NCBI GenBank assembly: GCA_004347965.1
Contig: QNVF01000004.1
Span: 1-41,433 of the forward strand
Direction of reading: 5' to 3'
Source of the DNA: Candidatus Nezhaarchaeota archaeon WYZ-LMO8
GTDB lineage: Archaea > Thermoproteota > Methanomethylicia > Nezhaarchaeales > WYZ-LMO8
DNA: 41,433 bases
Shown piece after piece: positions 1 through 40,653 of this stretch (the stretch's first letter is position 1; every line of letters begins with the position of its first letter). The translations under genes were made by a program, and so were the position numbers. The notes below the pieces were generated by a model. The model had not been told where the DNA came from, did no database searches, and saw nothing but the letters and a program-made list of their open reading frames with translations.

Positions 1-299
1 ATAAGAGAGTGAAATTGTATTAGTAACCTTCTTGCTAATAATGGCTGTAGATTCGATGTTTTTGCATAGAGACTTACCGAGCAACATAACACCAAGTGTA
101 AATGATTCAAGAAGCATTTAAAGCGGATAGGGCACTGAAGCATTAGTTTAAAGTACTCTACCATCATTTTCGGCAGCTTCAACACTAATGAGCAAAAATG
201 TTGTGACAAGTACGTAGCCACTTAATTTCGTATGAGTATCGACAGCCATACCTAGAAGATACATGAAAAAGTAGAAGATGCTGAGATGTCGACTCACAC

Positions 300-1079
300 T
301 TACTCTTCAATTATTGCAACGGCTCTACACCATGCCGCAGATGCACGAGCTATCTTTATTGGAAAGCAAGCTACCTTGAATCCGTGGGGTCTTGGAACCT
401 TATCCAGGTTCGCTAGCTTCTCAATGTGACAGTACTCCTTCGTTATGGCTGCAAAGTGCGCTGGCCATATTACCCTGCCGTCTCTAGTTCGCTTGTAATC
501 ATCCGCCATGTACTTAAATGGCCTATCGAATGTGTAGGCATCAATGCCCATGACCTTGACGCCCTGCTCGACCAACCATAAGGTAGCTTCCATTGACATC
601 CCAGGCTGCTCGAAGTACTCCGGTGTCCCAGCATATTTATCACGGCCAGTCATTATGAGGACTATGTCATATGGCTTTATTGTGTACCCAATCTTGTCCA
701 GTACTCCCTTTAAGTCATCAACAGTGATGTACTCTCCAGGCTTCTTATGCCTAAGGTCCAAGATTACTCCATCAGAGTAGCACCATTCCAACGGCACCTG
801 ATCTATGGTCCTAGCGAGCTTACCCTCCGATATGGGGTGAAAATGCCACGGAGCGTCTAAGTGTGTACCCGTATGCGTTATGGCACTTACCTCCTCGATG
901 GACCATCCAAGTCCTCCAGAGTACACTAGGTCTCGTGGGTCCACTCCAAGCAGTCTTTGCATATCGATTGCCCCTTCTCTATGATCTACATACCTGATTT
1001 TTGGCCTATACAGCTCTGGCTCTAATGGAGAATTATGCTCAATCGGCAAACTTAAATCGATTATCTTGACCCTCCCCAT
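300..1079 (-). CDS. Cyclase family metal-dependent hydrolase (kynurenine formamidase-like)
   Basis: 259 aa ORF with family signature HTGTHLDAPWHF, N-terminal IIDLS, and C-terminal IEKLANL / FPIKI...RAVA. Confidence 0.88.
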   Translation of the reverse strand: MGRVKIIDLSLPIEHNSPLEPELYRPKIRYVDHREGAIDMQRLLGVDPRDLVYSGGLGWSIEEVSAITHTGTHLDAPWHFHPISEGKLARTIDQVPLEWCYSDGVILDLRHKKPGEYITVDDLKGVLDKIGYTIKPYDIVLIMTGRDKYAGTPEYFEQPGMSMEATLWLVEQGVKVMGIDAYTFDRPFKYMADDYKRTRDGRVIWPAHFAAITKEYCHIEKLANLDKVPRPHGFKVACFPIKIARASAAWCRAVAIIEE

Positions 1080-11337: not shown

Positions 11338-11338
11338 T

Positions 11339-12007: not shown

Positions 12008-12160
12008 AAAAGGCACCTCAAGATATCTAGTATCATCCCTTACAAATATTTTTGGTGTTGAAAATTCAGATAAGATAGAAGATGTGGAGGATAGCTCTAA
12101 GAGATGAACTTCTACGTAGTCGAGTTCTAAAAGACTTATTGATCACTAAGTCGTGAACTG

Positions 12161-14071: not shown

Positions 14072-14196
14072 GGTTATCTAGAAGAGTTTAGGATATCTCA
14101 GCTTTTAATATGCTTAGCTCGGACCTTGCAACCATTTAGGGTAAGACTTTAGAGCTTGTTGGATGATATAATCTCAATCGATTTCGGGAGGTTAAA

Positions 14197-21740: not shown

Positions 21741-21758
21741 AGCTTGGATTTAAAATAT

Positions 21759-22169: not shown

Positions 22170-22200
22170 ATAACTCCTAGTTCCTGTGTTTTTGAGTGGG

Positions 22201-26671: not shown

Positions 26672-26764
26672 GATACTCGTAAGTGAGGACGATGGTAATA
26701 AAGCAAAGGGTTATCGAACATCATGTGATGAAGAGCTAGGATCTAAAATTTTCGAAGAAAAACT

Positions 26765-26779
26765 GAGAAAGTTTAAAAA
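26765..26779 (+). promoter_or_regulatory. Putative BRE/TATA promoter of the hdr/hydrogenase operon
   Basis: GAGAAAG-TTTAAAAA about 75 nt upstream of the hdrC ATG in the 181-nt gap after dmrX. Confidence 0.5.
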
Positions 26780-26852
26780 AGAACTAAATAGAAATTATGA
26801 GAGTCTGATAAGAACCCAAATACCTTACGAGAGCCTTGAGGAGCCGATCACG

Positions 26853-27380
26853 ATGGCGGATACCAAGCCATTAATTGCAAGCTACCCCATAACTTTAGAG
26901 CAACTTAACAAGAAAATTCCCGAAGTACTTAAGGAGACGGGGATTGAGAAGTGCATTCAATGCGGCACTTGCACAGGATCTTGTCCTTCAGGCAGGAGGA
27001 CAGCTTTTAGGACTAGAGTCGTCATAAGGAAAGCCCTGCTTGGATTGAGGGAGGACTTACTAAAAAGCAATGATATATGGCTTTGCACTACGTGTTATAC
27101 ATGCTATGAGCGATGTCCTCGGAAGATAAGCATTATCGAAGCCATTATAGCTTTAAGGAACATGGCTGCAGCTCAAGGGTTCATGCTGCCTAGACATAAA
27201 GAGATATCGAAGTACTTGGTGAGCTATGGGCACTTAGTACCTATAAATGAACCTAACAAAAAGCGCAGAACTGAATTAGGCTTATCAGAAGTTCCTCCAA
27301 CTGTGCACTCTCATCCCGAGGCTCTTGAAGAAGTTAAGAAGCTCCTTGAAGTCACCGGGTTTACTAAACTCGTGGGGTGA
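26853..27380 (+). CDS. hdrC: Heterodisulfide reductase subunit C
   Basis: GAGGAG RBS + ATG 26853; CIQCGTCTGSCPSGRRT, WLCTTCYTCYERCPR, GHLVPI, PPTVH. Confidence 0.93.
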   Translation: MADTKPLIASYPITLEQLNKKIPEVLKETGIEKCIQCGTCTGSCPSGRRTAFRTRVVIRKALLGLREDLLKSNDIWLCTTCYTCYERCPRKISIIEAIIALRNMAAAQGFMLPRHKEISKYLVSYGHLVPINEPNKKRRTELGLSEVPPTVHSHPEALEEVKKLLEVTGFTKLVG

Positions 27381-28285
27381 AGGTCTTGGGTGAGCTAAGA
27401 TTTGCGTTCTTCTTAGGTTGCATTATGCCTAACAGGTATCCTGGACTAGAAGCCTCCGTTAGGAGGGTCTTTGAAAAACTGGGCATAGAGCTTGTAGACA
27501 TGAAGGGTGCTTCATGTTGCCCTGCCCCCGGGGTCGTGAGGTCCTTCAAGTTTGATACATGGGTGGCATTGGGGGCTAGGAATTTATCAATAGCTGAAGA
27601 GATGGGCCTTGACATAGTCACAGGATGTAGTGGCTGCTATGGAACACTCAGAGATATATGGTATGAACATCGTGAAAAGAAGGAGATTAGAGATAAAGTT
27701 GACTACTACTTATCTCAAATAGGTAAATCGTTTAAAGGTAAGATCAAGGTAAAACATGTTCTTGAGGTCCTCCACTTTGATGTAGGCGTTGAAAAGCTTA
27801 AAGAATTCATCAAAAAACCTTTAAGCAACATTAAGGCTGCTGTCCACTACGGATGCCATATCCTAAAGCCGAGTGATAAGAGACCTTGGAAAGAGGGAAC
27901 TGAGAAACCAAGATTCTTTGATGAGCTTGTAGAGGTTACTGGAGCAAAAAGCATTGATTGGAAAGACAAGTTCATGTGCTGTGGCGCTGGTGGTGGGGTC
28001 AGATCTGGAGCTTTGGACGTAGCTCTGCACATGACAAAAGAAAAGATCGAGAATGCTTATGCAAGCGGAGCTGATTGCATAGTTAACGCGTGCTCATTTT
28101 GCCATCTTCAATTTGATACAGGTCAAATAGAGATAAACAAAAGTTACGGTACTTCATTTAACATGCCAATAATTTATTACACACAACTTTTAGGTTTAGC
28201 AATGGGTCTAAGCCCTGAAGAGCTCGGTTTACATCAAAACAATGTTAGTGTTGAACCTTTATTAAGGAAGTTGGGGGTGAACTAG
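27377..28285 (+). CDS. hdrB: Heterodisulfide reductase subunit B
   Basis: Two intact CCG domains: LGCIMPNRYPG, SCCPAPG, CSGCYGTL, HYGCH, CCGAGGGVRS, CSFCHLQFD. Confidence 0.95.
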   Translation: MKVLGELRFAFFLGCIMPNRYPGLEASVRRVFEKLGIELVDMKGASCCPAPGVVRSFKFDTWVALGARNLSIAEEMGLDIVTGCSGCYGTLRDIWYEHREKKEIRDKVDYYLSQIGKSFKGKIKVKHVLEVLHFDVGVEKLKEFIKKPLSNIKAAVHYGCHILKPSDKRPWKEGTEKPRFFDELVEVTGAKSIDWKDKFMCCGAGGGVRSGALDVALHMTKEKIENAYASGADCIVNACSFCHLQFDTGQIEINKSYGTSFNMPIIYYTQLLGLAMGLSPEELGLHQNNVSVEPLLRKLGVN

Positions 28286-28286
28286 C

Positions 28287-28814
28287 TTGGCGACCGGGGA
28301 GGTTAAGGGAGAAACACAACATAAAACGTTCGCGTCTTATAGGACTTCGTTAAGGAAGGTCTTTTACATAGACCTTGAGAAGTGCATAGGATGCAAGTCG
28401 TGTGAAGCTGCATGCGCTAGAGTGCATGATGGTAGCCCGAGGATGTATATCCAGACGATATCTGAATTCAATGTTCCAATGCACTGTCAACATTGTGAAG
28501 TCCCTGCTTGCGTTGAAGCATGTCCTGAAAAGGCGATAGACGTCTCGCCTGAGGGCTTCACAGTATTGAACGAAGCAAAGTGCGTTGCATGTAGGGCATG
28601 CATAGTGGCATGTCCTTTTGGCATGCCCAGGCTTGAGGAGGAGAAGAGGGTCGTTGTTAAATGCGATATGTGTATTGAGAGGATAAGGCAAGGGCTAGAA
28701 CCAGCTTGTGTGGCTACATGCACATCAGGGGCCTTAATGTTTATAACGTGCATAGGTTGTAATATATGCGTTGTTTCGTGCCCATTTGTTAAGAAAGTAA
28801 GCATTAAGGGCTGA
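28287..28814 (+). CDS. HycB/HydN/CooF-like 4x[4Fe-4S] electron-transfer subunit
   Basis: CIGCKSCEAAC, CQHCEVPACVEACP, CVACRACIVACPFG, KCDMC...PACVATC; extra C-terminal CIGCNICVVSCP. Confidence 0.88.
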   Translation: MATGEVKGETQHKTFASYRTSLRKVFYIDLEKCIGCKSCEAACARVHDGSPRMYIQTISEFNVPMHCQHCEVPACVEACPEKAIDVSPEGFTVLNEAKCVACRACIVACPFGMPRLEEEKRVVVKCDMCIERIRQGLEPACVATCTSGALMFITCIGCNICVVSCPFVKKVSIKG

Positions 28815-28821
28815 AGCTGTA

Positions 28822-29367
28822 ATGGCTATTTCGCATAAAATCGAAGAGTTTAGAAAAGCTCTCTTAGAGTTTGCTAAGAGGGGTACCATAACATCTAAGG
28901 TAGTTATAGAAGTACCTGAGCTACTATACGGCTTTGGCAAGCCCATTTACGACTCGGAGAAGTGCTATGGGTGTGCAGCTTGTACGATTCAATGTCTAGG
29001 TGGGGCTTTGAGACTTATTGAAACTCAGGATAGAAGGAGGATATACATGGATTACTGGAGGTGTATAGCTTGCGAGGAGTGCGCCATCAAGTGTCCCAAG
29101 GAAGCTATAAAAGTTGAGAGAGTTTTCGATTTATCGAGTTTTTTAAGTGATGAACCTCTCCTCTTAATTGATGTTGAGCTCAAGAGGTGCATGATGTGTG
29201 GAAGATCTATTTCCTCAATTAAGCAAATAGATGAGGTGCATGGTTTGATTAAGCACTTACCCTTACCTAAGACCCACATCGACAGGATTGGTCTTCTTTG
29301 TGAAGACTGTAGAAAGGTTGTTGCAGCTAAATCATTACTGAGAAGTAGGGGGGCTAAGGTTGGATAG
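28822..29367 (+). CDS. HycF/NuoI-like 2x[4Fe-4S] subunit with C-terminal four-Cys site
   Basis: GKPIYDSEKCYGCAACTIQC, CIACEECAIKCP, RCMMCG...LCEDCRK. Confidence 0.8.
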   Translation: MAISHKIEEFRKALLEFAKRGTITSKVVIEVPELLYGFGKPIYDSEKCYGCAACTIQCLGGALRLIETQDRRRIYMDYWRCIACEECAIKCPKEAIKVERVFDLSSFLSDEPLLLIDVELKRCMMCGRSISSIKQIDEVHGLIKHLPLPKTHIDRIGLLCEDCRKVVAAKSLLRSRGAKVG

Positions 29368-31270
29368 TGTGAGGTCCATCTGCCCATTTTGTTGTCTTGG
29401 ATGCAACTTGCAGCTAATAGTAGATAAAGGAGCGATAGTAGGTATAGAGTACTTGAGCGAGGGGCCAAATGAGGGAGCTCTTTGTACGAGAGGAAACACC
29501 AGTTACGAAATTGCTCAACATCCTGATAGGCTTGCAACCCCACTCATTAGGAGCGATGGTGGATTTAAGGAAGTCTCTTGGAGTGATGCCTTGAAGTTCC
29601 TATCAGAAAAGCTGTTAAAAATAAAGTCAGAACATGGTCCAAGATCCATCGGCGTCATAGCTTCGGCGAGAACGTCAAATGAAGATTGCTATGTAACGCA
29701 GAAGTTTGCTAGAACAGTTTTAGAGACTCCAAACATAGACAACCCAGCTAGACTTACGCATGCAGCTACATTGAGCTCCTTAGCCAAGAACCTTAAGTAT
29801 CCATGGGCGACGTGCACGTTAGATTTGATTGAGGAAACAGACTTCATTCTAATAGCTGGTGCTAATCCCTTCGAGGTAAACCCTGTTTTAACGAGAAGGA
29901 TTCTGAGAGCTAGGGATGGCGGGGCCATAATTGTGGTCGTGGATCCAAGGCGTACCAAGACGACGTGGAAGTCAGACCTACATCTCCAAGTTAAGCCGGA
30001 AAGCGATCCTGAGTTATTCCTGTCGATGCTTAACGTTATAAGTTCATCAAAGCTAATTAAGGACGAAGCCTGGAAAGTTGAAGGCTTCCAGGAAACAGTT
30101 AAACTGGCAGAGGAGTACATCCCTGAGAACGTAGAAGCGAAGGTGGGTATTAGTTCGAAGCTTATAAGGGAGACTGCTCTTAGGCTCGCACTTTCTAAGA
30201 GGCCAATAATAATATTTTCTCATGGACTGACTCAGCAGAGGAGAGCTTTAGCTGCCCTCAGGGCTCTTGTGGTACTCAGTAGGGCTGTAGGGGTCTTCTC
30301 TAATGGTGGTCTAATACCATTAACCGATCAAAACAATATGCAAGGATCATGCGACATGGGTTGTTTAGCTGAGTACGGTCCAGGCTATACGTTAGTCGAG
30401 AAAGGTCTCACTATAACTGAGATGATTGAGACCGCAGCTAAAGGAGACTTAAAGGCCCTCATAGTCATAGGCTTCAACTTAGTTGCGTCATTACCTGACC
30501 GAAGGTTCATTGAAGATGCTCTAAGAAGACTTGACTTACTCGTGGTGATGGACCTCTTCCCTACAGATACTACAAAGCTTGCTCACGTGGTATTACCGAT
30601 ATGTTCATGGGCTGAGTACGACGGAACCTATACGAACATTGAGGGAAGAGTTCAAAGAAGCTTTAAGGCTATCGAACCATTAAATGAAGCCAAACCTTTA
30701 TGGTTAATTCTATCAGAGCTTGCGAGGATCATGGGTGCGAAGGGCTTCAATTACTCTAGCTGGATTGATGTTTTTAAAGAGATAACGCTCACCGTAGACC
30801 AATATTCAAAGTTAACCATAGAAGGAGTATCAGTGATTGGCGGTCAGCTAGTCAAGAAGGAGATCAAAGGGATTACCAGCTTGAAGGAATTAAAGTCTGA
30901 GCCTGAATCACCTGAAGAAGCTTCAAATAAGTTTGTCCTCATAGCCGGGAGGGGGATACACCACCTAGATACCGGTGACTTAACTCGAAGGTTGAGCTTC
31001 GCTTCAAAGGAAGTACCTGAACCATACCTTGAAATCTCTCAAGAAGATGCGCTTGAACTTAACTTAAAGGATGGAGATGTCGTTGAAGTCAAGGGGCCAA
31101 AGGGAAGCTTAAGGGTTAAGGTTAAGGTGGCGCCTAAGGGCCTGAGAGGCGTAGTGTTCATGCCGATACACTTCCCAAGCTGTAGCCCATTATCGATAGC
31201 GAACTTTAAAGTACATGAAGAAACAAAGGCCCCATTAATTAAGCACTTCATGGTGGAGATAACTAGGTGA
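29360..31270 (+). CDS. FdhF/FdhA-like molybdopterin oxidoreductase with substituted active site
   Basis: CPFCCLGC...ALCTRG Fe-S domain, RLATPLIR, SARTSNE, QKFAR, NIDNPARLTH, VDPRRT, QNNMQGSCDMG, GTYTNIEGRVQR, C-terminal cap domain VFMPIHF. Confidence 0.85.
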   Translation: MDSVRSICPFCCLGCNLQLIVDKGAIVGIEYLSEGPNEGALCTRGNTSYEIAQHPDRLATPLIRSDGGFKEVSWSDALKFLSEKLLKIKSEHGPRSIGVIASARTSNEDCYVTQKFARTVLETPNIDNPARLTHAATLSSLAKNLKYPWATCTLDLIEETDFILIAGANPFEVNPVLTRRILRARDGGAIIVVVDPRRTKTTWKSDLHLQVKPESDPELFLSMLNVISSSKLIKDEAWKVEGFQETVKLAEEYIPENVEAKVGISSKLIRETALRLALSKRPIIIFSHGLTQQRRALAALRALVVLSRAVGVFSNGGLIPLTDQNNMQGSCDMGCLAEYGPGYTLVEKGLTITEMIETAAKGDLKALIVIGFNLVASLPDRRFIEDALRRLDLLVVMDLFPTDTTKLAHVVLPICSWAEYDGTYTNIEGRVQRSFKAIEPLNEAKPLWLILSELARIMGAKGFNYSSWIDVFKEITLTVDQYSKLTIEGVSVIGGQLVKKEIKGITSLKELKSEPESPEEASNKFVLIAGRGIHHLDTGDLTRRLSFASKEVPEPYLEISQEDALELNLKDGDVVEVKGPKGSLRVKVKVAPKGLRGVVFMPIHFPSCSPLSIANFKVHEETKAPLIKHFMVEITR

Positions 31271-31277
31271 GGGTTCG

Positions 31278-34200
31278 ATGTCTAAGAACGTAAGAATCGG
31301 AGTATTTATATGTCATTGCGGTAAGAACATAGCTGGGACCGTCAACGTCGAAGATGTTAGAAAGTACGCTGAAAAGTTACCGAACGTCATAGTGGCTAGG
31401 GATTACATGTTCATGTGCTCTGAAGCAGGTCAGCAATTGATTAAAGACGCCATAAAGGAATTTAATCTAAATAGGATCGTTGTTGCTGCTTGCTCTCCTA
31501 AGCTTCACGAAATCACCTTCCGTCGATGCTTAGAGGAAGCAGGTCTGAATAAGTTCTTCTTAGAAATGGCGAATATAAGGGAGCAATGCTCATGGGTTCA
31601 CATCAATGAACCTCATAAGGCAACAGAGAAAGCCAAGGCTCTCATAAGGGCTGCAGTTATGAGAATACATGAACACGAAGAAATTGGAACTATTAGAGAG
31701 GATGTAGTAAGGAAGGTGTTAGTCATAGGTGGAGGAATAGCAGGAATACAAGCATCACTAAATCTTGCGAGGCCCCGCAAAGGTAGGTTAAGGTCAGTCC
31801 TAGTCATAGGTGGAGGAATAGCAGGAATACAAGCATCATTGGACTTAGCTGACATGGGGTACAAGGTTTACCTTGTTGAGAGGAGATCAGTTATAGGAGG
31901 TAACATGGCAAAGACCTACAAGACATTCCCAACAGATGATTGCGCAATGTGCATACTTTCACCAAAGATGAATGACGTCGCCGCTCACAAAAATATAGAA
32001 CTCATAACTAACGCGGAAGTAGTATCGATTGATGGGGAAGCAGGTCACTTTAAGGTCAAGATAAGGAAACATCCAAAGTACGTAAACCCAGCAAAATGCA
32101 CTGCATGTGGGACTTGTGCTGAAAAGTGCCCCGGCAGAGCTCCTGACGACTGGAACTTATTCGGTACGCGAAAAGCCATATACTTACCGTATCCACAAGG
32201 AGTTCCTAGGAAGTACGTCATAGACCCAAAAGCCTGCTTGTATCTAACTAAGGGGATATGCAGAGTATGTGAGAAGATATGTCCAGCTGGAGCGATAAAC
32301 TTCGAAGATAAAGGCGAAGAAGTGGAAGTAGAGGTTGGAGCAATAATAGTTGCAACTGGGTGGGAAGAGTTCAATCCAGAGCCCTTAACTCAATATGGTT
32401 ATGGCAAGTACAAGAACGTGATCACGTTAATTCAATTCACAAGGATGTTTGACGTCGCGGGTCCAACTGGAGGTAAGGTCGTAAGGTTGAGTGACGGTAA
32501 GCCAGCCAACAGGATCCTGATAGTTAATTGTGTTGGTTCTAGAGATGACAGGTACATACCTTATTGCTCAACAGTCTGCTGCATGGCAGCCATTAGAAAT
32601 GCTAGGCTCGTTAAGTTTGAACAGAATCCTAACGCTGAGGTCTACATATGCTACATAGACATAAGGGCTTCTGGGAAAGGGTATGAAGAGTACTATAAGA
32701 GCTCACAAGGCATGGGTATTAACTTCATTAGAGGTAGGGTAGCAGAGGTATACGAAGATGAGAAGACGGGTGATGTGATAGCTAGGGTCGAGGACACTAC
32801 AACTAGGACTATACTGGAGCTACGAGTTGACCTCTTAGTACTAGCATGCCCGATGGTTCCATCTAAGGGTACTAGAGAGATTGCAGATCTACTAAAGCTT
32901 GAGACAGACGAATTCGGCTTCATAAAACCAAGACACCACAAACTTGCTCCAGTAGACACCTCGAGACCTGGGATCTTTGCTTGCGGATGTGCCACAGGTC
33001 CAAGAGACATCCCAGATACGGTAGCGTCTGCAAGTGCCGCAGCTTTGAGGGCCGCTATGTTTCTGGAAGGCGAGCCATTTGAGGTTTACCTCGTCGAGAA
33101 AAGCCCATACCTCGGTGGGGTGACGTTTAAGCTTGCAAGAACATTCTTCACCGATGAGCCTCTACCGGATATCCTCACCCCACTATTTAAGGAGCTTTCT
33201 GGAAGCACAAACATTCACTTGCTATTAAACTCTGAGGTCAAAGAGGTGAAGGGGCACATAGGAAACTTCACTGTCAAGATATTGCAAAGGCCTCGATACG
33301 TTGACGTAACAAAGTGTAATGGTTGTGGTTTATGCAAGGACGTCTGTCCAGTTAAGGTGGATGATGAGTGGAATCTTGGGTTGACTAAGAGGTCAGCGAT
33401 ATTCAAACCTCATCCAGATGCCTACCCAATAGCGTACGCTATAGACCCTCATAACTGTAAGTTTGCTTCGTGTGCCAAATGCGTTGAGGTGTGTCCAACT
33501 AAGGCCATAGTGCTTAGCGAAGAACCAAGAGAGATAGAGCTGAAAGTGGGAGCAATAATCGTCGCTACGGGTCTAGACGAGTTTAAGCCCTTAGAGATTA
33601 AGCAGTATGGATACGGAGTTTACAAGGACGTCATCACTCAGCTTCAATTAGCAAGAATGTTAGATCCTAAAGGCCCTACGGGAGGTAAGTTGGTTAGACC
33701 GTCGACAGGCGAAGTGCCAAGAAGTGTTGTCATGATTCAATGTGCTGGCTCTAGGGATGAGAAGACGAATCCTTATTGTTCAAGAATATGTTGTGCAGTT
33801 GCCTTAAAGGCCACCAAGATGATCAAGGAGCAGATACCAGGCTGCGACATTTACATATGCTATGTAGATATGAGCGCATTCGGTTTCTTAGAGCTTTACT
33901 ATAAGAACGTACAATCCATGGGTGTGAACTTCATAAGAGGTAAAGTCGCTGAGGTGTTGAGTGAAGGAGACAGGTTAAAGGTTAGGGTTGAGGATACATT
34001 ACTTGGAGAACTTATTGATGTACCAGCTGACTTGGTTGTCTTGTCCTCTGCCCTCATTCCAGCTGAGGGTACATCAGATTTCGCTAAGGTGCTTGGTATA
34101 GATGTTGGTCCTGATGGCTTCTTAAAAGAGCTGCATCTTAAGCTAAGGCCTGTGGACTCCAAGGTAGCTGGTATATTTATTGCTGGCGGATCGCAGGGAC

Positions 34201-34535
34201 CTAAGGACATAGCCGATACAGTGGCTCAAGCATTAGCAGCTTCATCTAAAGCTACCATTCCCATAGCTCGCGGATTCATAGAGGTCGAATTAGTTAAAGC
34301 ACAGGTTGACGAAGACCTTTGCGTTGGCTGCGGACATTGCGAGAAAGTATGTCCGTACAAGGCCATAGAGATAGTTAACATATCACGTGGCCGGAAGATT
34401 GCTAAGGTTCATGAAATAGAGTGTGAAGGATGTGGTGCCTGCGCTGCTACTTGTAGGCTAGGGGCCATTCAACTGAGGGGCTTTAAAGACAATCAAATAT
34501 CGGCTCAACTAGTTGGCTTGCTAGGTGGTGGTTAA
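31278..34535 (+). CDS. hdrA: Heterodisulfide reductase subunit A, 1085 aa, containing two FAD/Fe-S cores (nested)
   Basis: IGVFICHCG, FMCS, AACSP, NIREQCSWVH; two GGGIAG motifs; two ferredoxin inserts; two C.GSRD...YCS..CC motifs; two GP.DI.D motifs; one C-terminal ferredoxin. Confidence 0.93.
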   Translation: MSKNVRIGVFICHCGKNIAGTVNVEDVRKYAEKLPNVIVARDYMFMCSEAGQQLIKDAIKEFNLNRIVVAACSPKLHEITFRRCLEEAGLNKFFLEMANIREQCSWVHINEPHKATEKAKALIRAAVMRIHEHEEIGTIREDVVRKVLVIGGGIAGIQASLNLARPRKGRLRSVLVIGGGIAGIQASLDLADMGYKVYLVERRSVIGGNMAKTYKTFPTDDCAMCILSPKMNDVAAHKNIELITNAEVVSIDGEAGHFKVKIRKHPKYVNPAKCTACGTCAEKCPGRAPDDWNLFGTRKAIYLPYPQGVPRKYVIDPKACLYLTKGICRVCEKICPAGAINFEDKGEEVEVEVGAIIVATGWEEFNPEPLTQYGYGKYKNVITLIQFTRMFDVAGPTGGKVVRLSDGKPANRILIVNCVGSRDDRYIPYCSTVCCMAAIRNARLVKFEQNPNAEVYICYIDIRASGKGYEEYYKSSQGMGINFIRGRVAEVYEDEKTGDVIARVEDTTTRTILELRVDLLVLACPMVPSKGTREIADLLKLETDEFGFIKPRHHKLAPVDTSRPGIFACGCATGPRDIPDTVASASAAALRAAMFLEGEPFEVYLVEKSPYLGGVTFKLARTFFTDEPLPDILTPLFKELSGSTNIHLLLNSEVKEVKGHIGNFTVKILQRPRYVDVTKCNGCGLCKDVCPVKVDDEWNLGLTKRSAIFKPHPDAYPIAYAIDPHNCKFASCAKCVEVCPTKAIVLSEEPREIELKVGAIIVATGLDEFKPLEIKQYGYGVYKDVITQLQLARMLDPKGPTGGKLVRPSTGEVPRSVVMIQCAGSRDEKTNPYCSRICCAVALKATKMIKEQIPGCDIYICYVDMSAFGFLELYYKNVQSMGVNFIRGKVAEVLSEGDRLKVRVEDTLLGELIDVPADLVVLSSALIPAEGTSDFAKVLGIDVGPDGFLKELHLKLRPVDSKVAGIFIAGGSQGPKDIADTVAQALAASSKATIPIARGFIEVELVKAQVDEDLCVGCGHCEKVCPYKAIEIVNISRGRKIAKVHEIECEGCGACAATCRLGAIQLRGFKDNQISAQLVGLLGGG
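31720..31838 (+). repeat. Exact 38-bp direct repeat (81-bp period) inside hdrA
   Basis: TAGTCATAGGTGGAGGAATAGCAGGAATACAAGCATCA at 31720-31757 and 31801-31838. Confidence 0.95.
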
Positions 34536-34537
34536 GT

Positions 34538-34978
34538 ATCGAGAAAGCCAGCGAATTCGATCCGGTGATAGTAGCATTTTGCTGTGAGCATTGTGCTTAC
34601 GCTGCTGCCGATCTTGCAGGAACATCAAGGATGCAGTACCCACCTAACGTCAGGATAGTGAGGGTGCCATGCACCGGTAAGGTTGACATGCTCTACATAC
34701 TAAGGGCGTTTATGCTTGGAGCTGACGGAGTCTTCGTCGCTGGCTGTCTTAAGGGTGGCTGCCACTTCGTGGACGGTAACTTAAAGGCTAACGCAAGAGT
34801 TCAATTCTTGAAAAAGATACTTGAGTTATTAGGCTTTGGTGGAGATAGGCTTGATATGTTCTTTATGTCCTCAGCCATGACGTGGGAGTTTGTGAGAATA
34901 GCAAGAGAGTTTACGGAGAGAATCAAGAAGCTAGGACCTAACCCATTCTTTAAGAGAAACGGGGTTGATGGTAAATGA
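34538..34978 (+). CDS. mvhD: [2Fe-2S] MvhD/FlpD subunit
   Basis: (EFDP)VIVAFCCEHCAYAAADLAG..RMQYPPNVRIVRVPCTGKV, GADGVFVAGC..GGCHF, LGPNP; start is GTG 34565 or non-canonical ATC 34538. Confidence 0.92.
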   Translation: MEKASEFDPVIVAFCCEHCAYAAADLAGTSRMQYPPNVRIVRVPCTGKVDMLYILRAFMLGADGVFVAGCLKGGCHFVDGNLKANARVQFLKKILELLGFGGDRLDMFFMSSAMTWEFVRIAREFTERIKKLGPNPFFKRNGVDGK

Positions 34979-35430
34979 GCTTTAAGGTTCCTTCAAATTT
35001 CAATGAGCTCTTGAAGCTTATTGAGGGCGAGCTAAGCCCCATTAGTGTTGATGTTAGGAGTAGTAAGAGGATTTATGTAGATATAAAGAAAGAGGATATT
35101 AGGAGGGCGGCTAAGCTCTTCCTAGATCTCTTTGAGCCTCTTAGGGGTAGGTTCTCAACCGCTACCGCCATGGATTGCAGAGATCATTTTGAAATCCTAT
35201 ACCACTTCTCATTTAGTGAGCTTGGACTTGTACTAACCGTGAGATGCAAGGTGCCTAGATACAAGCCAGAGATAGACTCGATAGCCGACTTGATATATGG
35301 AGCAAGCTTCATCGAAAGGGAGATCCACGACCTCATGGGCATAAAGTTCATGGGTCACCCGAATCTAAGAAGGTTAGTATTACCCGATGATTGGCCAGAA
35401 GGTGTATACCCACTTAGGAGGTATGGATGA
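34975..35430 (+). CDS. Group 4 hydrogenase NuoC/EchD/MbhK-like subunit
   Basis: FEILYHFS, IDSIADLIYGASFIEREIHDLMGIKFMGHPNLRRLVLPDDWPEGVYPLR. Confidence 0.9.
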   Translation: MSFKVPSNFNELLKLIEGELSPISVDVRSSKRIYVDIKKEDIRRAAKLFLDLFEPLRGRFSTATAMDCRDHFEILYHFSFSELGLVLTVRCKVPRYKPEIDSIADLIYGASFIEREIHDLMGIKFMGHPNLRRLVLPDDWPEGVYPLRRYG

Positions 35431-36617
35431 TGTCGGGAGGAGAGCTCGTAATACCGTTAGGACCCTATCACCCAGCATTTAAAGAGCCTGAACTCTTCAA
35501 GCTCTACGTTGATGGAGAATCCATAGTGAATATAGACATTAGGCTCGGATTTCAACATAGAGGTATCGAGTACCTGGCTCAGAAGTTGACGGTCCAACAA
35601 GTAGTTTTCTTGGTGGAGAGAATATGTGGGATATGCTCTACCTCACATCCAACATGTTTTTGTCAAGCTGTAGAAGAGGCAATGGGGCTTGAGGTCCCGG
35701 ATAGAGCTAGGTACATCAGGACTCTGATAGCAGAACTTGAAAGAATTCATAGCCACTTGCTCTGGGCTGGGGTAGCGCTACACCTCATAGGCTACGATAC
35801 GTTATTCATGTACTTCTGGAGATATCGAGAGCCAGTATGTGAGCTCTTTGAGGAGCTGACAGGTAATAGACAACATTACGCTATGCTATGTCCTGGTGGA
35901 GTGAGAAGAGACATAGACTTGAAGAAAATGAGGCCTAAGATCCTTAAAGTGATGAAAGAGATAAAGGAAGCAATTACCAAGTTAGCTGATGCTGTAGCCC
36001 GCGATAGACTCGTGAGGGCAAGAATGGAGGGAATAGGTGTTCTAACAAAGCAAGATGCCATTAGGTACTGTGTGGTTGGTCCAACAGCTCGAGGATCAGG
36101 GCTTAAGATTGATGTGAGGGCTGATGAGCCCTATGCAGCCTACAAGGAGTTGGGAGTCGACGTCAAGGTTATGACTGAAGGCGATGTACTGGCTAGGACT
36201 CTCGTCAGAGTCTTAGAGACATTGGAATCCGTAGAGATAATAGAGAGGTGCATCGACTCCATGCCCAATGGCCCCATAACAGCGGAGTTTAATGAGTACC
36301 CCGTAGCTGACGGTATAGGAAAGCACGAGGCTCCTAGAGGCGAGGACATACACTACGTCAAGCTCAATGGTACACCAGTACCTGAGAGAGTCAAAATTAG
36401 AGCTCCTACTTACGCTAACCTTCCATCACTGGTCCCCCAGCTTATAGGGTACTCAATAGCCGACGCCCCGATAATATTGGGCTCAATAGACCCTTGCTTT
36501 AGCTGCACAGAGAGGGTCTCGATAGTCGATGTTAGAAATGGGAGGACCATAACCCTATCGATGGACGAGTTCAACGAGTTTTGTCGTAAGAGGAAGAATC
36601 CGTTAAAGGTGAGGTGA
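35427..36617 (+). CDS. Group 4 membrane-bound [NiFe]-hydrogenase large subunit
   Basis: GPYHPAFKEP, HRGIE, L1 ERICGICSTSH, ELERIHSHL, EAPRGE, L2 DPCFSCTER followed by a 33-aa C-terminal extension. Confidence 0.93.
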   Translation: MMSGGELVIPLGPYHPAFKEPELFKLYVDGESIVNIDIRLGFQHRGIEYLAQKLTVQQVVFLVERICGICSTSHPTCFCQAVEEAMGLEVPDRARYIRTLIAELERIHSHLLWAGVALHLIGYDTLFMYFWRYREPVCELFEELTGNRQHYAMLCPGGVRRDIDLKKMRPKILKVMKEIKEAITKLADAVARDRLVRARMEGIGVLTKQDAIRYCVVGPTARGSGLKIDVRADEPYAAYKELGVDVKVMTEGDVLARTLVRVLETLESVEIIERCIDSMPNGPITAEFNEYPVADGIGKHEAPRGEDIHYVKLNGTPVPERVKIRAPTYANLPSLVPQLIGYSIADAPIILGSIDPCFSCTERVSIVDVRNGRTITLSMDEFNEFCRKRKNPLKVR

Positions 36618-37589
36618 ATGATTGACCTTTGGGTTGTGGGGCTCTCAATAGCATACATAGTGCTTATAGGGCTACTGATAGCGCCGAACATAGGCCTATT
36701 CTTGACGTGGATTCATAGAAAGCTTGGAGCACGAATGCAGTGGCGTATAGGGCCTCCAATATATCAGCCGTGGGCCGATGTCATCAAGCTACTATCTAAA
36801 GAGCTAATAGTTCCAGAGACAGCGCATAGAGCAACGTTCCTCTTAGCGCCTCTATTAGCCCTCGCAACGGTGATACTAGCGTTCTTAATAATGCCATTTG
36901 TGGGAAGGACGCCCTTAGCCTTTGTAGGCGACGTTATAGTGGTCATTTACTTGATGTCAATGCCAGCCTTAGCAGCAATGATTGGAGGATCGGCCTCGGG
37001 AAACCCTTACGCCGCAGTTGGAGTTCAGAGAGAAATGACACTAATATTCTCTTACGAGCTTCCATTCATCATGGCTGCCTTGGTGCCAATACTTAAGGCT
37101 CGGAGCTTGAAATTCATCGATATAATTAATTATCAATTAGGTAACGGTCCACTCGTCTTCACGATTTCGGGTTTCTTAGCATTTGTTGTCATGGTGATGG
37201 TGATGCAGGCTAAGCTTGCTCTTCCACCATTTGACATACCTGAAGCGAAAACAGAGATAATCGCTGGTCCCTACGTGGAGTACTCCGGACCTCTGCTTGC
37301 ACTATTTAAGCTTGCTCATGCAGTTATGCTGTTGGTAGTAGCTTGCTTCGTATCCAACATGTTGCTCGGTGGCCTAATCGTTAGTGATTGGAGTAGCTAT
37401 GTCGTGATTTTAACGGACTTGCTGCTCATAGCGGTTAAGATACTAGTAGTCATAATAATAGCTGCCTTCATAAGATTCTACAATCCCAGATTAAGACCAG
37501 ACCAAGCTTTTGGCATGTTCTGGAAGACCATAACGTTCATAGCTGCCTTGGCTCTAATCCTAAGTTTCGTTCCCATACCATACTTTTAA
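36618..37589 (+). CDS. NuoH/HycD/EchB-like membrane subunit
   Basis: RKLGARMQWRIGPPIYQPWADVIKLLSKE, SGNPYA, PFDIPEAKTEIIAGPYVEYSG, PRLRPDQ. Confidence 0.92.
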   Translation: MIDLWVVGLSIAYIVLIGLLIAPNIGLFLTWIHRKLGARMQWRIGPPIYQPWADVIKLLSKELIVPETAHRATFLLAPLLALATVILAFLIMPFVGRTPLAFVGDVIVVIYLMSMPALAAMIGGSASGNPYAAVGVQREMTLIFSYELPFIMAALVPILKARSLKFIDIINYQLGNGPLVFTISGFLAFVVMVMVMQAKLALPPFDIPEAKTEIIAGPYVEYSGPLLALFKLAHAVMLLVVACFVSNMLLGGLIVSDWSSYVVILTDLLLIAVKILVVIIIAAFIRFYNPRLRPDQAFGMFWKTITFIAALALILSFVPIPYF

Positions 37590-37601
37590 GTGGTGTTAGG
37601 C

Positions 37602-38042
37602 ATGTCTGGCTTAATCACATGGGCTCGAATAAAGAGTCCTTGGCTATTTCACTTCAACTCTGGATCATGTAATAATTGTGACATAGAGTTATTAGATGCT
37701 TTAACTCCGAGGTTCGATGTCGAAAGGTTTGGGATACTTCTAGAGGGAAGTCCAAGGCACGCCGATGTGCTCGTCGTGACTGGGATCGTTAACAGGCAAA
37801 CTCTACCAAGGCTTAAGAGAATCTACGATCAAATGCCGAACCCGAAGATCGTCGTGGCCCTAGGTACTTGTGCAACATCTGGGGGGATATTCTCTGAGGG
37901 ATACAACATAGCTGGGCCAGTAGACAAAGTCATACCGGTTGACGTCTACATACCCGGCTGTCCTCCCAGACCTCAAGCGATCATAGATGGCATAGTGAAG
38001 GCATTAGCCAAGATTCAAGCTCTTAGAGGTGGTAAGAGGTGA
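37602..38042 (+). CDS. Group 4 hydrogenase small subunit (NuoB/HycG-like)
   Basis: SPWLFHFNSGSCNNCDIE, SPRHADVL, GTCATSGG, PVDVYIPGCPPRP. Confidence 0.93.
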   Translation: MSGLITWARIKSPWLFHFNSGSCNNCDIELLDALTPRFDVERFGILLEGSPRHADVLVVTGIVNRQTLPRLKRIYDQMPNPKIVVALGTCATSGGIFSEGYNIAGPVDKVIPVDVYIPGCPPRPQAIIDGIVKALAKIQALRGGKR

Positions 38043-39925
38043 TCGCTATGAGCCTTTCAGAGATAATGCTGATCATGGTGCTAGTGCCTGGTGTAGCTGG
38101 CTTCATAACTCTTGGTTTAAGTAAGGTTAGAGCTACTAGTGGAGCCATCGCCTCCATTGCCTGCTTGATCGCACTAATCATGAGCGGGGCCCTACTGTAT
38201 AAGCTAAATGTGGAGAACATAGTTCAACAGGTGATCTTGTGCCTAAGCGTTATCGGAATGAAATGGGAGCTCGAAGTTACAAGGCTCAATGCCCTTACTA
38301 CGTTCTTCATCGCATTGATTGGTTTTCTAATAGCACTATATTCCACTAGATACATTACTAGGTACGATGGTAAGGGCTACTACTTCACGCTAATACTTTG
38401 GAGCTTAAGTGCATCGATAATCGCCATGATGTCAATGAACTGGATATCGTTCTTAGTATTTTGGGAAGTCTGCACGTTAGCCTTATTCTTCTTAGTTAGA
38501 GCCGGGGGTAGTGAGGCTAAAGCACCTGCATATAGGGCGCTCCTCCTTCTGGCTTCATGCGACCTCTTAATGACTGTCGGGGTTGCCTTGGCCGTAGTTA
38601 AGACGCAAAGTCTTGAAATCTCAAGGCTCGCAGGCTTAGACCCACTTAGCGTGGGTTTGATATTCACGTTAATGATTCTAAGCGCCTTAGCTAAGGCAGG
38701 AGGTGTACCGGTTCATACATGGATCCCAGATATTGCTTCAAACTCTCCGGCGACCACACTAGCTCTATATCCAGCTGCCTACGATAAGCTGCTTGGGATA
38801 TTCAAGCTCTCAGTGATCTGCCACTACATTATAGCATTTACCCCTTCAATTAGCACGGTAGTCACCATTATAGGAATGATGACCATGCTCTTGGCTGTCC
38901 TCATGGCCATGGTTCAGCACGACATAAAGAAGCTGCTTAGCTTTCACGCTATTAGCCAAGTGGGCTACATGATAACCGGTATAGGCATCGGAACCTCACT
39001 AGCCATAGCCGGTGGTCTCTTCCACATGGTCAACAACGTGCTTTTTAAGAGCTGCCTATTCTTAACAGCTGGAGCAGTCTTCTACGTTACTGGTGCCAAA
39101 GAGGTTGAGAGGCTAGGTGGGCTGGCTAAGAAGATGCCCATCACCTTCGCGTGTGCTCTGATAGCGGCTCTCGCAATATCAGGAGTTCCACCGTTGAATG
39201 GCTTTGCTAGCAAGTGGATGATATACCAAGCTGCCTTTGAAGCAACGGAGATAAGTCCTGTCAACGCAGTCGCTGGTATAATCGCAGTTTTAACCAGCGC
39301 CCTAACCTTAGCTTCATTCATAAAGTATCTTCACAGCGTATTTCTAGGCCCCCTACCAAGAGGGTACGAAAACGTCGAGGAAGTACCATTAAGTATGAGA
39401 GTTCCGATGATTGTGTTGGCGGCTTTATGCATAGTCTTTGGGCTACTCCCACAAGTCCCCCTCACCTACATGATCATACCTGCTTTAAGTAACATACACG
39501 TTACGTACGGCTTGCCTACATCACTACCGCTAGAGTGGGTGTACTTAGCTCCATCAGCTTGGGCTACTTGGAGCCCAATAGTAGTCACGTTGATAGCCCT
39601 CTTAGCGCTAGCGCTTGGGTGGATTATCTACGTAACTGGTAAGAGGGTGCAGCCGTTTGTCTATAGGATTGAAGCCGTTAAGCCATTTGTCTCCGGTGAA
39701 GACCTAATTATCTATTATCATGGCGGGCACTTCTATGGACCAGTTAAGTTATCCTTAAAGAGGTTCTACTCAATAGCAGATAAGGGAGGATTCTCGATAG
39801 CGTGGAGATCTATTGCTAACATCTTTAAACCAGTCTTAAAGAGTCCTAGAAACGGGGTTTTCTTTATTTATGCCTTGTGGATCATCATGATAATTTTGGT
39901 GGCGATTATTGGTGGTGGTACATGA
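38039..39925 (+). CDS. Antiporter-like ion-translocating subunit (NuoL/HyfB/HycC/EchA family)
   Basis: FLVFWE, KAGGVPVHTWIPD, DIKKLLSFHAISQVGY, FKSCLFL.AG, GGLAKKMP, GVPPLNGFASKW. Confidence 0.92.
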   Translation: MIAMSLSEIMLIMVLVPGVAGFITLGLSKVRATSGAIASIACLIALIMSGALLYKLNVENIVQQVILCLSVIGMKWELEVTRLNALTTFFIALIGFLIALYSTRYITRYDGKGYYFTLILWSLSASIIAMMSMNWISFLVFWEVCTLALFFLVRAGGSEAKAPAYRALLLLASCDLLMTVGVALAVVKTQSLEISRLAGLDPLSVGLIFTLMILSALAKAGGVPVHTWIPDIASNSPATTLALYPAAYDKLLGIFKLSVICHYIIAFTPSISTVVTIIGMMTMLLAVLMAMVQHDIKKLLSFHAISQVGYMITGIGIGTSLAIAGGLFHMVNNVLFKSCLFLTAGAVFYVTGAKEVERLGGLAKKMPITFACALIAALAISGVPPLNGFASKWMIYQAAFEATEISPVNAVAGIIAVLTSALTLASFIKYLHSVFLGPLPRGYENVEEVPLSMRVPMIVLAALCIVFGLLPQVPLTYMIIPALSNIHVTYGLPTSLPLEWVYLAPSAWATWSPIVVTLIALLALALGWIIYVTGKRVQPFVYRIEAVKPFVSGEDLIIYYHGGHFYGPVKLSLKRFYSIADKGGFSIAWRSIANIFKPVLKSPRNGVFFIYALWIIMIILVAIIGGGT

Positions 39926-40491
39926 CCAAGCTGAAGGCTGTACTTGAAGGTTTTAGAGCCTTGATTAAGGGTCCCTTCACGGTAAGGTATCCCTTCGAGC
40001 CCTCTCCTCCGCCTGAAACTTTTAGAGGAGCTCCTAAACGAGATATCGAGAAGTGTACTGCATGCGGTGCATGCTACCAGAATTGCCCAACTAAAGCCAT
40101 TTCGATCCTCGACCTAGGCAAGGAGGTTGCTGTCGACGTTTGGTACGGTAAGTGCATCTTCTGTGCGAGGTGTACTGAGGTGTGCCCTGAAGAAGCAGTT
40201 AAGATGAGCTTGACCTATGACCTCAGCACCTACAACAAGGAGGAGGTTAGAGAAAGCGTCTCCATGCCCGCTCAAAGATGTCAAATATGTGGAAAGTTGA
40301 TAACAAGCGATAGGCAGGTAGACAAGGTTATTGATAGGGTTAAGATACTTCCGCTACCATTAAATTACCATATGATGGTGTCTCTATGCCCAGAATGCAA
40401 GAGGAAGCAGCAAGCTACACTTTTATTGGGATTAAGAGTGGAGAGAGTACCAGCAATAACCATTCCGGTGGCTGTCAGCGAAAAGAAGTAG
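39922..40491 (+). CDS. HycF/NuoI-like 2x[4Fe-4S] subunit of the hydrogenase
   Basis: GGTGGTGG RBS + ATG 39922; GPFTVRYPF...FRGAP, CTACGACYQNCP, CIFCARCTEVCP, RCQICG...LCPECKR. Confidence 0.9.
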   Translation: MTKLKAVLEGFRALIKGPFTVRYPFEPSPPPETFRGAPKRDIEKCTACGACYQNCPTKAISILDLGKEVAVDVWYGKCIFCARCTEVCPEEAVKMSLTYDLSTYNKEEVRESVSMPAQRCQICGKLITSDRQVDKVIDRVKILPLPLNYHMMVSLCPECKRKQQATLLLGLRVERVPAITIPVAVSEKK

Positions 40492-40653
40492 AAAGCTTTG
40501 AATTCATATGTTTTTAAACTAGCACCTTCCTCTTTGAGGAGAGTTAACGATTTAGCTTAGCTTCTTCCAAACTTTAACGTATTGACGTTTAAAATATAAG
40601 ACTACGACACGAAATGTAAAGAGGACAGGCTGATACTCGAAGGGCTATTCTCC

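Follow-up and report, generated by a model that had tools for sequence, protein, structure and literature searches.

The 13 tightly packed genes at positions 26853–40491 (+ strand) of a 41,433-bp stretch of DNA from Candidatus Nezhaarchaeota archaeon WYZ-LMO8 are the Ehg cluster of the Nezhaarchaeia (Methanonezhaarchaeia), which has already been described and named. The whole stretch, referred to as the window, is the entire contig C34 of the source genome (G000; 1.35 Mb, 78 contigs, 93.4% complete), which belongs to a methanogen from a hot spring. Among the details that are new here, the subunit resembling the formate dehydrogenases FdhA and FdhF looks CATALYTICALLY dead, HdrA is a covalent pseudo-dimer carrying a conserved extra GxGxxG unit, and MvhD has a predicted docking site on HycF-like 1. 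In our estimate the chances are about even that Ehg is a membrane-anchored H2:heterodisulfide oxidoreductase which replaces MvhAG. For heterodisulfide reduction and energy conservation without cytochromes or MvhAG, a question raised by the newly cultured methanogens of the Thermoproteota, Ehg is the leading candidate in the Methanonezhaarchaeia.

The Ehg cluster and its relatives

All open reading frames (ORFs) of the run lie on the + strand in the order hdrC, hdrB, hycB-like, hycF-like 1, fdhA-like, tandem hdrA, mvhD, nuoC-like, [NiFe] large subunit, nuoH-like, nuoB-like, nuoL-like, and hycF-like 2. Their junctions measure, 5' to 3', -4, +1, +7, -8, +7, +29, -4, -4, 0, 0, -4, and -49 nucleotides (nt; negative values are overlaps), the widest intergenic gap being 29 nt. 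Families were assigned by Pfam and NCBIfam profile searches. A preliminary description of the window had proposed this order of 13 genes and its tight packing, and both were confirmed by the ORFs, the family assignments, and the junctions between -49 and +29 nt.

The hydrogenase module begins with a NuoC/HycE-N-terminal-like subunit (151 amino acids (aa), 34975–35430; PF00329, E-value 1.4e-25) and a group 4 [NiFe]-hydrogenase large subunit of the NuoD type (396 aa, 35427–36617). The latter carries RICGIC and DPCFSC, so that its Ni-binding motifs are intact as first described, and its nearest solved chains are MbhL (6cfw_L, E-value 5.9e-90) and HycE (7z0s_E, E-value 1.3e-88). A NuoH/HycD-like membrane subunit (323 aa, 36618–37589; PF00146, E-value 8e-72; about 8–9 hydrophobic segments by hydropathy) and a NuoB/HycG-like small subunit (150 aa, 37590–38042; PF01058, E-value 6.2e-35; Cys 27, 30, 94, and 124) follow. 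The module is completed by a NuoL/HycC/MrpD-like antiporter-type membrane subunit (628 aa, 38039–39925; PF00361, E-value 1.4e-44, and NCBIfam), for which a hydropathy count gave about 15 hydrophobic segments, and by HycF/NuoI-like protein 2 (204 aa, 12 Cys, 39877–40491; NF009053, E-value 3e-37). The six core homologues of Ech/Mbh-type energy-converting hydrogenases (NuoB, NuoC, NuoD/NiFe, NuoH, NuoI, and NuoL) are thus all present. H2/H+ turnover by Ehg may be coupled to ion translocation.

Among the 'modular HdrB-interacting [NiFe] hydrogenases' of Kohtz et al. (2022, ISME Commun; PMC9723716, Fig. 4D/H), the passages on the Nezhaarchaeia name their cluster Ehg and give it as a group 4 hydrogenase co-located with HdrB, FdhF, HdrA, MvhD, and an antiporter subunit; in the tree shown there, the Ehg large subunits stand near group 4g. 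In the window, a group 4 catalytic subunit bearing CxxC motifs in its N- and C-terminal parts is co-located with HdrB, an FdhF-like protein, HdrA, MvhD, and an antiporter-type subunit in a member of the Nezhaarchaeia with Mcr (McrA on contig C18). Homologues of its FdhA-like protein and HdrA at 93–98% identity bear the NCBI name 'Candidatus Nezhaarchaeales archaeon'. Lineage and gene set match those in the Ehg passages of PMC9723716 and PMC12700198, as does the proposed role, in which H2 serves to reduce heterodisulfide with ion translocation and possibly with bifurcation, and the window is an instance of Ehg with nothing different in kind. With the cluster already published, the window does not bring a new type of system. 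The inference made from the sequence, a supercomplex of Hdr and a membrane hydrogenase that would tie the chemistry of H2, ferredoxin, and heterodisulfide to ion translocation in an archaeon without cytochromes, is reasonable, but it equals the published Ehg hypothesis and is, like it, a proposal. As far as the Ehg passages go, the cultured relative Ca. Methanonezhaarchaeum fastidiosum YNP3N (Sci Adv 2025, PMC12700198) expresses Ehg and is without FdhAB and MvhABG; Ehg may recapture H2 and possibly bifurcate, in a model that invokes internal H2 cycling. In these passages, both papers propose formate as a substrate.

Ehg combines parts of several known systems. With the MvhAGD-HdrABC complex of methanogens without cytochromes (5ODC) it shares HdrA, HdrB, HdrC, and MvhD, but it has a membrane-bound group 4 hydrogenase instead of the group 3c MvhA/MvhG, a fused pseudo-dimer instead of a homodimer of HdrA, and extra HycB/HycF-type and MopB subunits. 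Homologues of FdhF, HycB, HycF, HycG, HycE, HycC, and HycD, as found in the E. coli formate hydrogenlyase (FHL-1; 7Z0S/7Z0T) and in archaeal FHL clusters (G177, G088), are all present, to which Ehg adds HdrABC, MvhD, and a second HycF-like protein. The earlier statement that every component type of FHL-1 occurs in the operon is therefore true by protein family, whereas the FdhF-like protein is without the selenocysteine (SeCys) or Cys at position 140 and without Arg333. The type II HdrA-Molybdop-FdhB-MvhD-HdrBC clusters of anaerobic methanotrophic archaea (ANME) and Methanosarcinales (PMC12054007) have in common with Ehg a two-module HdrA, MvhD, HdrBC, and a MopB protein in which catalytic residues are missing; Ehg has no FdhB, and a membrane hydrogenase and HycB/HycF-type subunits instead.

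A CCG-domain HdrB is linked to a group 4 hydrogenase in Ehd, Ehe, and Drh too (Methanomethylicia, Culexarchaeia, and Methanocellales, in the passages of PMC9723716 on these clusters). Ehd-type clusters were found elsewhere in the class, in seven genomes from other families (G011–G015, G025, and G031; loci L050–L053 and L055–L057). They hold the nearest large subunits of those families, which are 46–52% identical to that of Ehg and form a separate tree clade, and an HdrB-like gene lies inside the hydrogenase cluster, directly 5' of the large subunit in five of the seven, with a HycB-like gene at one end. The FdhA-like gene is absent from all seven loci; HdrA and MvhD were not seen in five of them, and in G031 and G015 an HdrA-MvhD-HdrC-HdrB set stands beside the Ehd-type cluster.

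The full order of 13 genes recurs in a genome of the same genus (G006, 92–98% identity), in another genus of the family (G009, 68–88%), and in JAPDIZ010000001 (L012, genome G403; 41–81%), which is labelled 'Candidatus Bathyarchaeota archaeon S4B2_HD70'; this answers the search for the operon in other genomes that had been suggested at the outset. The co-located Ehg gene set was found in these three and in the metagenome loci L077 and L078, which keep the order up to their contig ends. McrA (PF02249) had no match in the 1.7-Mb genome holding JAPDIZ010000001, whose completeness is not given; if this absence is real, HdrB may there have a substrate other than CoM-S-S-CoB. Across 401 surveyed genomes of the phylum, orthologues of the FdhA-like protein (at least 66% identity) occurred only in family f1, in five of its ten genomes: complete in G000, G006, and G009, and as contig-end fragments in G001 and G007. 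None was found in G002–G005 and G008 (completeness 69, 85, 93, 75, and 67%, respectively; G004, at 93%, is in nine contigs). Elsewhere in the Thermoproteota, G177 and G088 carry ordinary clusters of the FHL type that include no Hdr.

From 80 metagenome loci, 11 were examined (L075 and L077–L086); L074 (100% identical, same organism), L076 (on the same contig as L011), and 67 loci with mostly single-length HdrA at no more than 54% identity were left out. L079 has the Ehg order without adjacent hdrCB. The loci L080–L086 are rearranged, with HycB-like, HycF-like 1, FdhA-like, HdrC, HdrB, tandem HdrA, and MvhD genes on one strand and a divergent block of four genes (NuoC, large subunit, HycF-like 2, and NuoB) without membrane subunits; HycF-like 2 stays with the hydrogenase module here. 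In L082, L083, and L086 the Hdr-side operon continues downstream into a complete Mbh-like cluster, and L085 ends inside hdrA. Ehg-like clusters in rearranged forms, without membrane subunits, and in a genome in which McrA was not found are new here.

The FdhA-like subunit and formate

The FdhA/FdhF-like MopB subunit (636 aa, 29360–31270, + strand) was assigned by Pfam and lies nearest to the Fdh-alpha family TIGR01591, with 503 bits being below the cut-off of 666. Among solved structures it is closest to true FdhA/FdhF chains, namely 9t1s_L (E-value 5.5e-112), 7qv7_S, 7bkb_D, and 1aa6_A, and it retains the N-terminal four-Cys motif and His134. At the catalytic positions, Thr133-His134 aligns with the SeCys ('X')-His pair of 9t1s_L and 1aa6_A and with Cys-His of 7qv7_S and 7bkb_D, while Thr322-Asp323 aligns with Arg333-Gly334 of E. 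coli FdhH (the numbering SeCys140-His141 of FdhH was counted from the printed alignment). The FdhH literature assigns functional roles to SeCys140, His141, and Arg333. Recoding of the gene for selenocysteine was considered and rejected, the codon of residue 133 being ACG (Thr).

An alignment of 26 sequences was made from the Nezha clade (13 sequences, at least 67% identity), ten canonical FdhA, the protein of L012, and two divergent MopB proteins (P0062 and P0068). All 13 members of the clade carry Thr in place of SeCys/Cys and either Thr or Ser in place of Arg, and all ten canonical FdhA have Cys-His and Arg-Gly. The divergent P0062 and P0068 are without the Arg-Gly pair as well, and L012 has Cys-Leu and Pro-Asp at these positions. 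The equivalent of Arg333 was kept in none of 11 Hdr-linked homologues, and in the same alignment the one FHL-cluster control, G177, kept both Cys-His and Arg-Gly; G088 and the short fragments L061 and L066 are not counted in the motif comparison. The residue is replaced by Thr or Ser in G000, L075, L077, and L078, by Met in L079, by Pro in L012, and by Leu in L080, L082, L083, L085, and L086; a spread of this kind (T, S, M, L, P) looks like relaxed constraint. Among the Hdr-linked variants, the Cys-His pair survives only in the L080–L086 group.

Formate is an unlikely substrate of Ehg, since Thr133 and Thr322 replace SeCys140 and Arg333 and the Arg is lost in all Hdr-linked homologues, and formate hydrogenlyase activity is unlikely as well, since the loss of catalytic residues is conserved across the clade. 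The subunit is probably a non-catalytic scaffold bearing a [4Fe-4S] cluster. In type II HdrA clusters, a role of this kind has been argued for the MopB proteins (PMC12054007). The loss of catalytic residues is a new detail: in the text of the two Ehg papers (PMC9723716, PMC12700198), as far as it was accessible, the point is not raised, the terms 'selenocysteine' and 'catalytic residue' occur 0 times, and 'active site' is used for Cox only.

The published alternative is an active formate dehydrogenase, by which Ehg would oxidise formate (or H2) for heterodisulfide reduction, or a formate hydrogenlyase with an Hdr branch. Its case is made by the resemblance to true FdhA/FdhF chains, by the retained four-Cys motif and His134, by HycB-like and HycF-like partners as in E. 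coli FHL, by the MopB tree of PMC12054007, which groups Nezhaarchaeales sequences with true FdhA, and by the formate proposal in the Ehg passages of both papers. Against this stand the substitutions at both positions in 13 of 13 clade members where 10 of 10 canonical FdhA are intact, the varied replacements of an Arg kept in 0 of 11 Hdr-linked variants, and the score below the family cut-off. Furthermore, no formate/nitrite transporter (PF01226) was found in the source genome, and for the YNP3N culture the passages concerned of PMC12700198 report no formate transporter and no growth with added formate. Taken together, these data make an active formate dehydrogenase very improbable, and the formate branch of the published Ehg model probably does not exist.

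Tandem HdrA, its partners, and a proposed route from H2

The tandem HdrA (1085 aa, 31278–34535, + strand; NCBIfam) was analysed by phmmer against 5odc_A and 9sfi_A, by AF2 modelling, and by VIA-align superposition. A single N-terminal domain (residues 5–145, phmmer) is followed by a 27-residue insert, consisting of an extra GxGxxG beta-alpha unit (147–164) and then a basic linker. TrxR-like module 1 (173 to about 598) is complete, with an inserted ferredoxin domain. Module 2 (601 to about 1000), which likewise contains an inserted ferredoxin domain, begins with the second Rossmann strand (F601 EVYLVE); it lacks its own GxGxxG. There is only one C-terminal ferredoxin domain. The description of this HdrA as 'double' thus applies to its two TrxR-like modules but not to complete copies, as only one N-terminal domain and one C-terminal ferredoxin domain are present.

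Both GxGxxG units are found in all of ten full-length homologues (56–98% identity), in which V149, I150, G151–G153, A155, and G156 are invariant and the cluster cysteines are kept in both modules. The AF2 model (pLDDT 87.1, pTM 0.87) has a predicted strand at 146–150 and a helix at 154–164, with a pLDDT of 92–93 for this block. It superimposes on 5odc_A with Z 53.0 (646 residues, 1.7 A, over model residues 3..1085) and on 8rvu_a with Z 55.6 (422 residues, 1.2 A, over 170..598), which indicates that the N-terminal domain, module 1, and the C-terminal domain form one native-like protomer into which module 2 is inserted. From sequence, secondary structure, and pLDDT we infer that the extra GxGxxG unit completes module 2 and that this module stands in for the flavin domain of the partner protomer. 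The tandem protein predicts a 1:1, asymmetric Hdr:hydrogenase assembly. The Ehg passages of PMC9723716 and PMC12700198 do not mention this architecture. In type II HdrA (PMC12054007), two TrxR-like modules occur as they do here, but both keep Glu356 and Lys409; in the Ehg protein, the equivalents read by hand from alignments are Thr388 (module 1) and Ala792 (module 2) for Glu356, and Arg440 (module 1) and Lys844 (module 2) for Lys409.

The remaining Hdr-side proteins, all on the + strand, are HdrC (175 aa, 26853–27380; TIGR03290, 213.8 bits against a cut-off of 160) with two CxxCxxCxxxC motifs, and HdrB (302 aa, 27377–28285; TIGR03288, 432 bits against a cut-off of 345) with two CCG domains (CCPAPG and CCGAGG; two PF02754 matches). 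The start of hdrC at 26853 agrees with its orthologues. Two connecting iron-sulfur subunits follow: a HycB/FdhB-beta-type polyferredoxin, called HycB-like (175 aa, 28287–28814; PF13247 Fer4_11, E-value 1.8e-21), with 20 Cys in five four-Cys motifs, and HycF/NuoI-like protein 1 (181 aa, 12 Cys, 28822–29367; NF009053, E-value 5.4e-21, below the cut-off), which is 32% identical to HycF-like 2. MvhD (MvhD/FlpD; 137 aa, 34565–34978) was identified by PF02662 (E-value 1.9e-50) and NF045873 (190 bits).

A complex prediction was run with MvhD as the scored partner of HycB-like and HycF-like 1. The docking scores were 0.73, 0.74, and 0.74 (median 0.74) and the best of three controls was 0.01; the mark of 0.74 is reached by 116 of 157 solved complexes and by 2 of 215 mismatched pairs, a calibration that is only rough for our own alignments of 4–5 rows. 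At least 91% of the contacts agreed between runs, and the partner pLDDT was at least 81. The predicted interface joins HycF-like 1 residues 6–35, 102, and 104 with MvhD residues 41–50, 70–91, and 127–129. MvhD is thus predicted to bind HycF-like 1, which supports binding but does not show it. The multimer check suggested in the preliminary description thereby yielded, for the HycB/HycF-type subunits, an interface on HycF-like 1, and with it a concrete candidate adaptor for receiving MvhD.

No mvhA/G and no FrhB/FdhB-type gene was found in the operon by Pfam and NCBIfam, as had been noted from the sequence. Over the whole genome, PF00374 matched four [NiFe] large subunits, namely that of Ehg, two others belonging to group 4, and a fourth resembling group 3b. 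Among these four matches in a 93.4%-complete assembly, there was no MvhA-type large subunit, which settles the question raised earlier of mvhAG elsewhere in the genome to that extent, and no group 1 uptake hydrogenase was seen.

In a membrane-anchored H2:heterodisulfide oxidoreductase, H2 would be split at the Ni-Fe site of the group 4 large subunit, which would work together with the NuoC-, NuoH-, NuoB-, and NuoL-like subunits and HycF-like 2. Electrons would pass from the NuoB-like subunit through HycF-like 2 and then the connecting subunits HycB-like and HycF-like 1 to the [2Fe-2S] cluster of MvhD and the HdrA flavin. One branch would lead from there over HdrC and HdrB to CoM-S-S-CoB, and a second, probably by flavin-based bifurcation, over the single C-terminal ferredoxin domain to ferredoxin. 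With the pseudo-dimeric HdrA, each membrane arm would be served by a single MvhD site, a single HdrBC, and a single ferredoxin exit. Ehg would accordingly take over the role of MvhAGD-HdrABC in an organism for which MvhAG was not found, and its NuoH/NuoL-like arm would couple the H2/H+ step to ion movement. The analysis shows the gene content and its conservation, the motifs, the lost catalytic residues of the FdhA-like protein, the layout of HdrA, and a predicted interface of MvhD with HycF-like 1; that the two halves assemble physically, which path the electrons take, that they bifurcate, and in what direction and with what stoichiometry ions are translocated are all inferred.

The gene blocks could also encode two enzymes on one transcript, that is a soluble HdrABC-MvhD-polyferredoxin-MopB enzyme and an Ech-type ferredoxin:H+ oxidoreductase, linked by soluble ferredoxin only; co-transcription would then reflect a shared redox loop. 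This is suggested by the two divergent blocks of L080–L086, by the six hydrogenase genes, which alone make a complete Ech-type set, and by the predicted contact of MvhD with a subunit of the Hdr-side block. In such an arrangement, however, the Hdr-side block would have no electron-input enzyme, because its MopB subunit is without catalytic residues. Moreover, the two blocks are adjacent in every arrangement examined, and the large subunits are monophyletic. In a maximum likelihood tree of 26 large subunits (midpoint-rooted for drawing only, with no HydDB references in the set), the ten adjoining a tandem HdrA, rearranged loci included, form one clade (support 100/99) separate from HdrB-embedded, Mbh-like, FrhB-associated, and FHL large subunits. 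One clade despite changes in order argues that the two gene blocks were inherited together. In the E. coli FHL structure 7Z0S, a HycB-type subunit reportedly binds a HycF-type subunit seated on the hydrogenase, which by homology argues against two separate enzymes as well. On balance, we consider two enzymes unlikely.

The same supercomplex might run in reverse at the Ni-Fe site, so that low-potential electrons, supplied either by ferredoxin through the polyferredoxin or by the HdrA flavin through its low-potential branch, would yield H2 and drive ion export, with heterodisulfide reduction as the pull. Mbh-, Ech-, and FHL-type group 4 hydrogenases conserve energy in the H2-evolving direction, and they are the nearest solved relatives of the Ehg large subunit. 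The two further group 4 hydrogenases of the genome, one of them FrhB-associated, and the lack of a group 1 uptake enzyme among the PF00374 matches make internal H2 turnover plausible; internal H2 cycling is also part of the published model, in the passages of PMC12700198 on Ehg. With a dead MopB subunit, on the other hand, there is no obvious mid-potential donor besides H2, and both the published model, as given in those passages, and the absence of MvhAG require that the route to the heterodisulfide consume H2. H2 evolution as the working direction is therefore doubtful in our assessment.

A bolder version of the membrane-anchored complex is a hard-wired bifurcation-to-ion-pump machine, in which the asymmetric tandem HdrA sits on the complex-I-like arm and interconverts heterodisulfide energy and an ion gradient directly, without soluble ferredoxin. 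In one direction, the gradient would help H2 oxidation to feed bifurcation at very low H2; in the other, low-potential electrons of the flavin would reduce protons and drive the export of ions. What was once a formate dehydrogenase would then be a NuoG-like scaffold. We put this forward as a speculative and rather improbable idea; if true, it would parallel the recruitment of a dead MopB domain by complex I and make Ehg a living link that stands between respiratory complex I and the soluble Hdr complexes.

Several points weigh against the H2:heterodisulfide oxidoreductase as proposed above. In complex-I-like hydrogenases such as Eha and Ehb, H2 oxidation is expected to consume, not build, an ion gradient, so that an energy-conserving role in the H2-uptake direction is not self-evident. 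The replacements at Glu356 and Lys409 mean that the bifurcation competence of HdrA is not assured. The predicted MvhD interface falls on HycF-like 1, which in rearranged clusters is a member of the Hdr-side block. With Thr or Ser at the Mo/W-ligand position, another molybdoenzyme activity of the FdhA-like subunit is not strictly excluded. That no FdhA-like orthologue was found in five of ten f1 genomes, including G004, indicates that the complex is not indispensable in the lineage. RNA contigs over the cluster, described below, are compatible with co-transcription in a relative but are not proof of a single transcript. The refinements presented here sharpen the Ehg hypothesis, and each is directly testable in the existing enrichment culture.

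Transcripts and genomic surroundings

A TATA-like element, TTTAAAAA, lies at 26772–26779 (+ strand) in the AT-rich 181-nt spacer 5' of hdrC, as the preliminary description had it, and GAGGAG stands 9 nt 5' of the hdrC ATG (26853). A T5 run at 40511–40515 (+ strand), 20 nt past the final stop, is a possible archaeal terminator; it was read from the sequence, as was the TATA-like element, and the function of both is putative. Scans for sigma-70 promoters (13 sites versus 23.8 in shuffled sequence) and intrinsic terminators (3 versus 10.4) were not used, as these models are inapplicable to archaea.

Contigs of one metatranscriptome library, 90–99% identical to the window, lie on 29 of 30 bins of 25800–41400, and single contigs span the hdrA/mvhD, mvhD/nuoC, and large-subunit/nuoH junctions. 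RNA run X13 had no contig on the bin 26321–26841, just 5' of hdrC, and few on the last genes; no transcript boundary was drawn from this. In DNA contigs of runs X10 and X12, joints skipping 994 nt (31336 to 32331, in hdrA) and 996 nt (35330 to 36327, nuoC/large subunit) were seen. With a short side of only 20–23 letters, these joints are probably cross-matches from other organisms or repeats.

In the source genome, the group 3b-looking hydrogenase cluster consists of a Fer4_22 protein, an FAD/NAD protein, the small subunit, and the large subunit, followed by a maturation protease. A second group 4 cluster (L008, G000:C23:36000-49261) contains NuoB, NuoC, a large subunit with intact CxxC motifs, and a 2x4Fe-4S protein, then an FrhB/FdhB-type gene; MnhB, NuoK-like, MnhE, NuoL-like, and NuoH-like genes are divergent and face the hydrogenase genes. 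This cluster looks like the FrhB-associated 'Ehi' complex, as far as that is set out in the relevant passages of PMC12700198.

Two more HdrA genes are present in the genome, each fused to MvhD. One (L154, G000:C4:21000-33353) is part of a set comprising a small iron-sulfur protein, a protein of 411 aa that Pfam did not match at 1e-8, the HdrA-MvhD fusion, a 437-aa polyferredoxin, HdrC, and HdrB. The other (L155, G000:C1:31000-44000) is divergent from an HdrD-like gene and adjoins EtfAB.

Directly 5' of hdrC, an MJ0208/DmrX-like flavoprotein with two 4Fe-4S motifs is encoded at 25928–26671. Its gene adjoins the cluster in G006 and G009 too, and had no match in L012. Further upstream, a reverse gyrase (22186–25947) is flanked by cofactor-related genes (20550–26671), among them an MfnA-type pyridoxal phosphate-dependent decarboxylase (20550–21740) and a DHNA/MptD-type aldolase (21744–22169). 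A methyltransferase set at 10060–15102 comprises a URO-D/MtaA-like protein (10060–11337, - strand), a corrinoid B12-binding protein (11339–12016, - strand), a RACo-type reductive activase (12161–14071, - strand), and an MtrH-like protein (14197–15102, + strand), a set in keeping with the reported growth of the cultured relative by methylotrophy.

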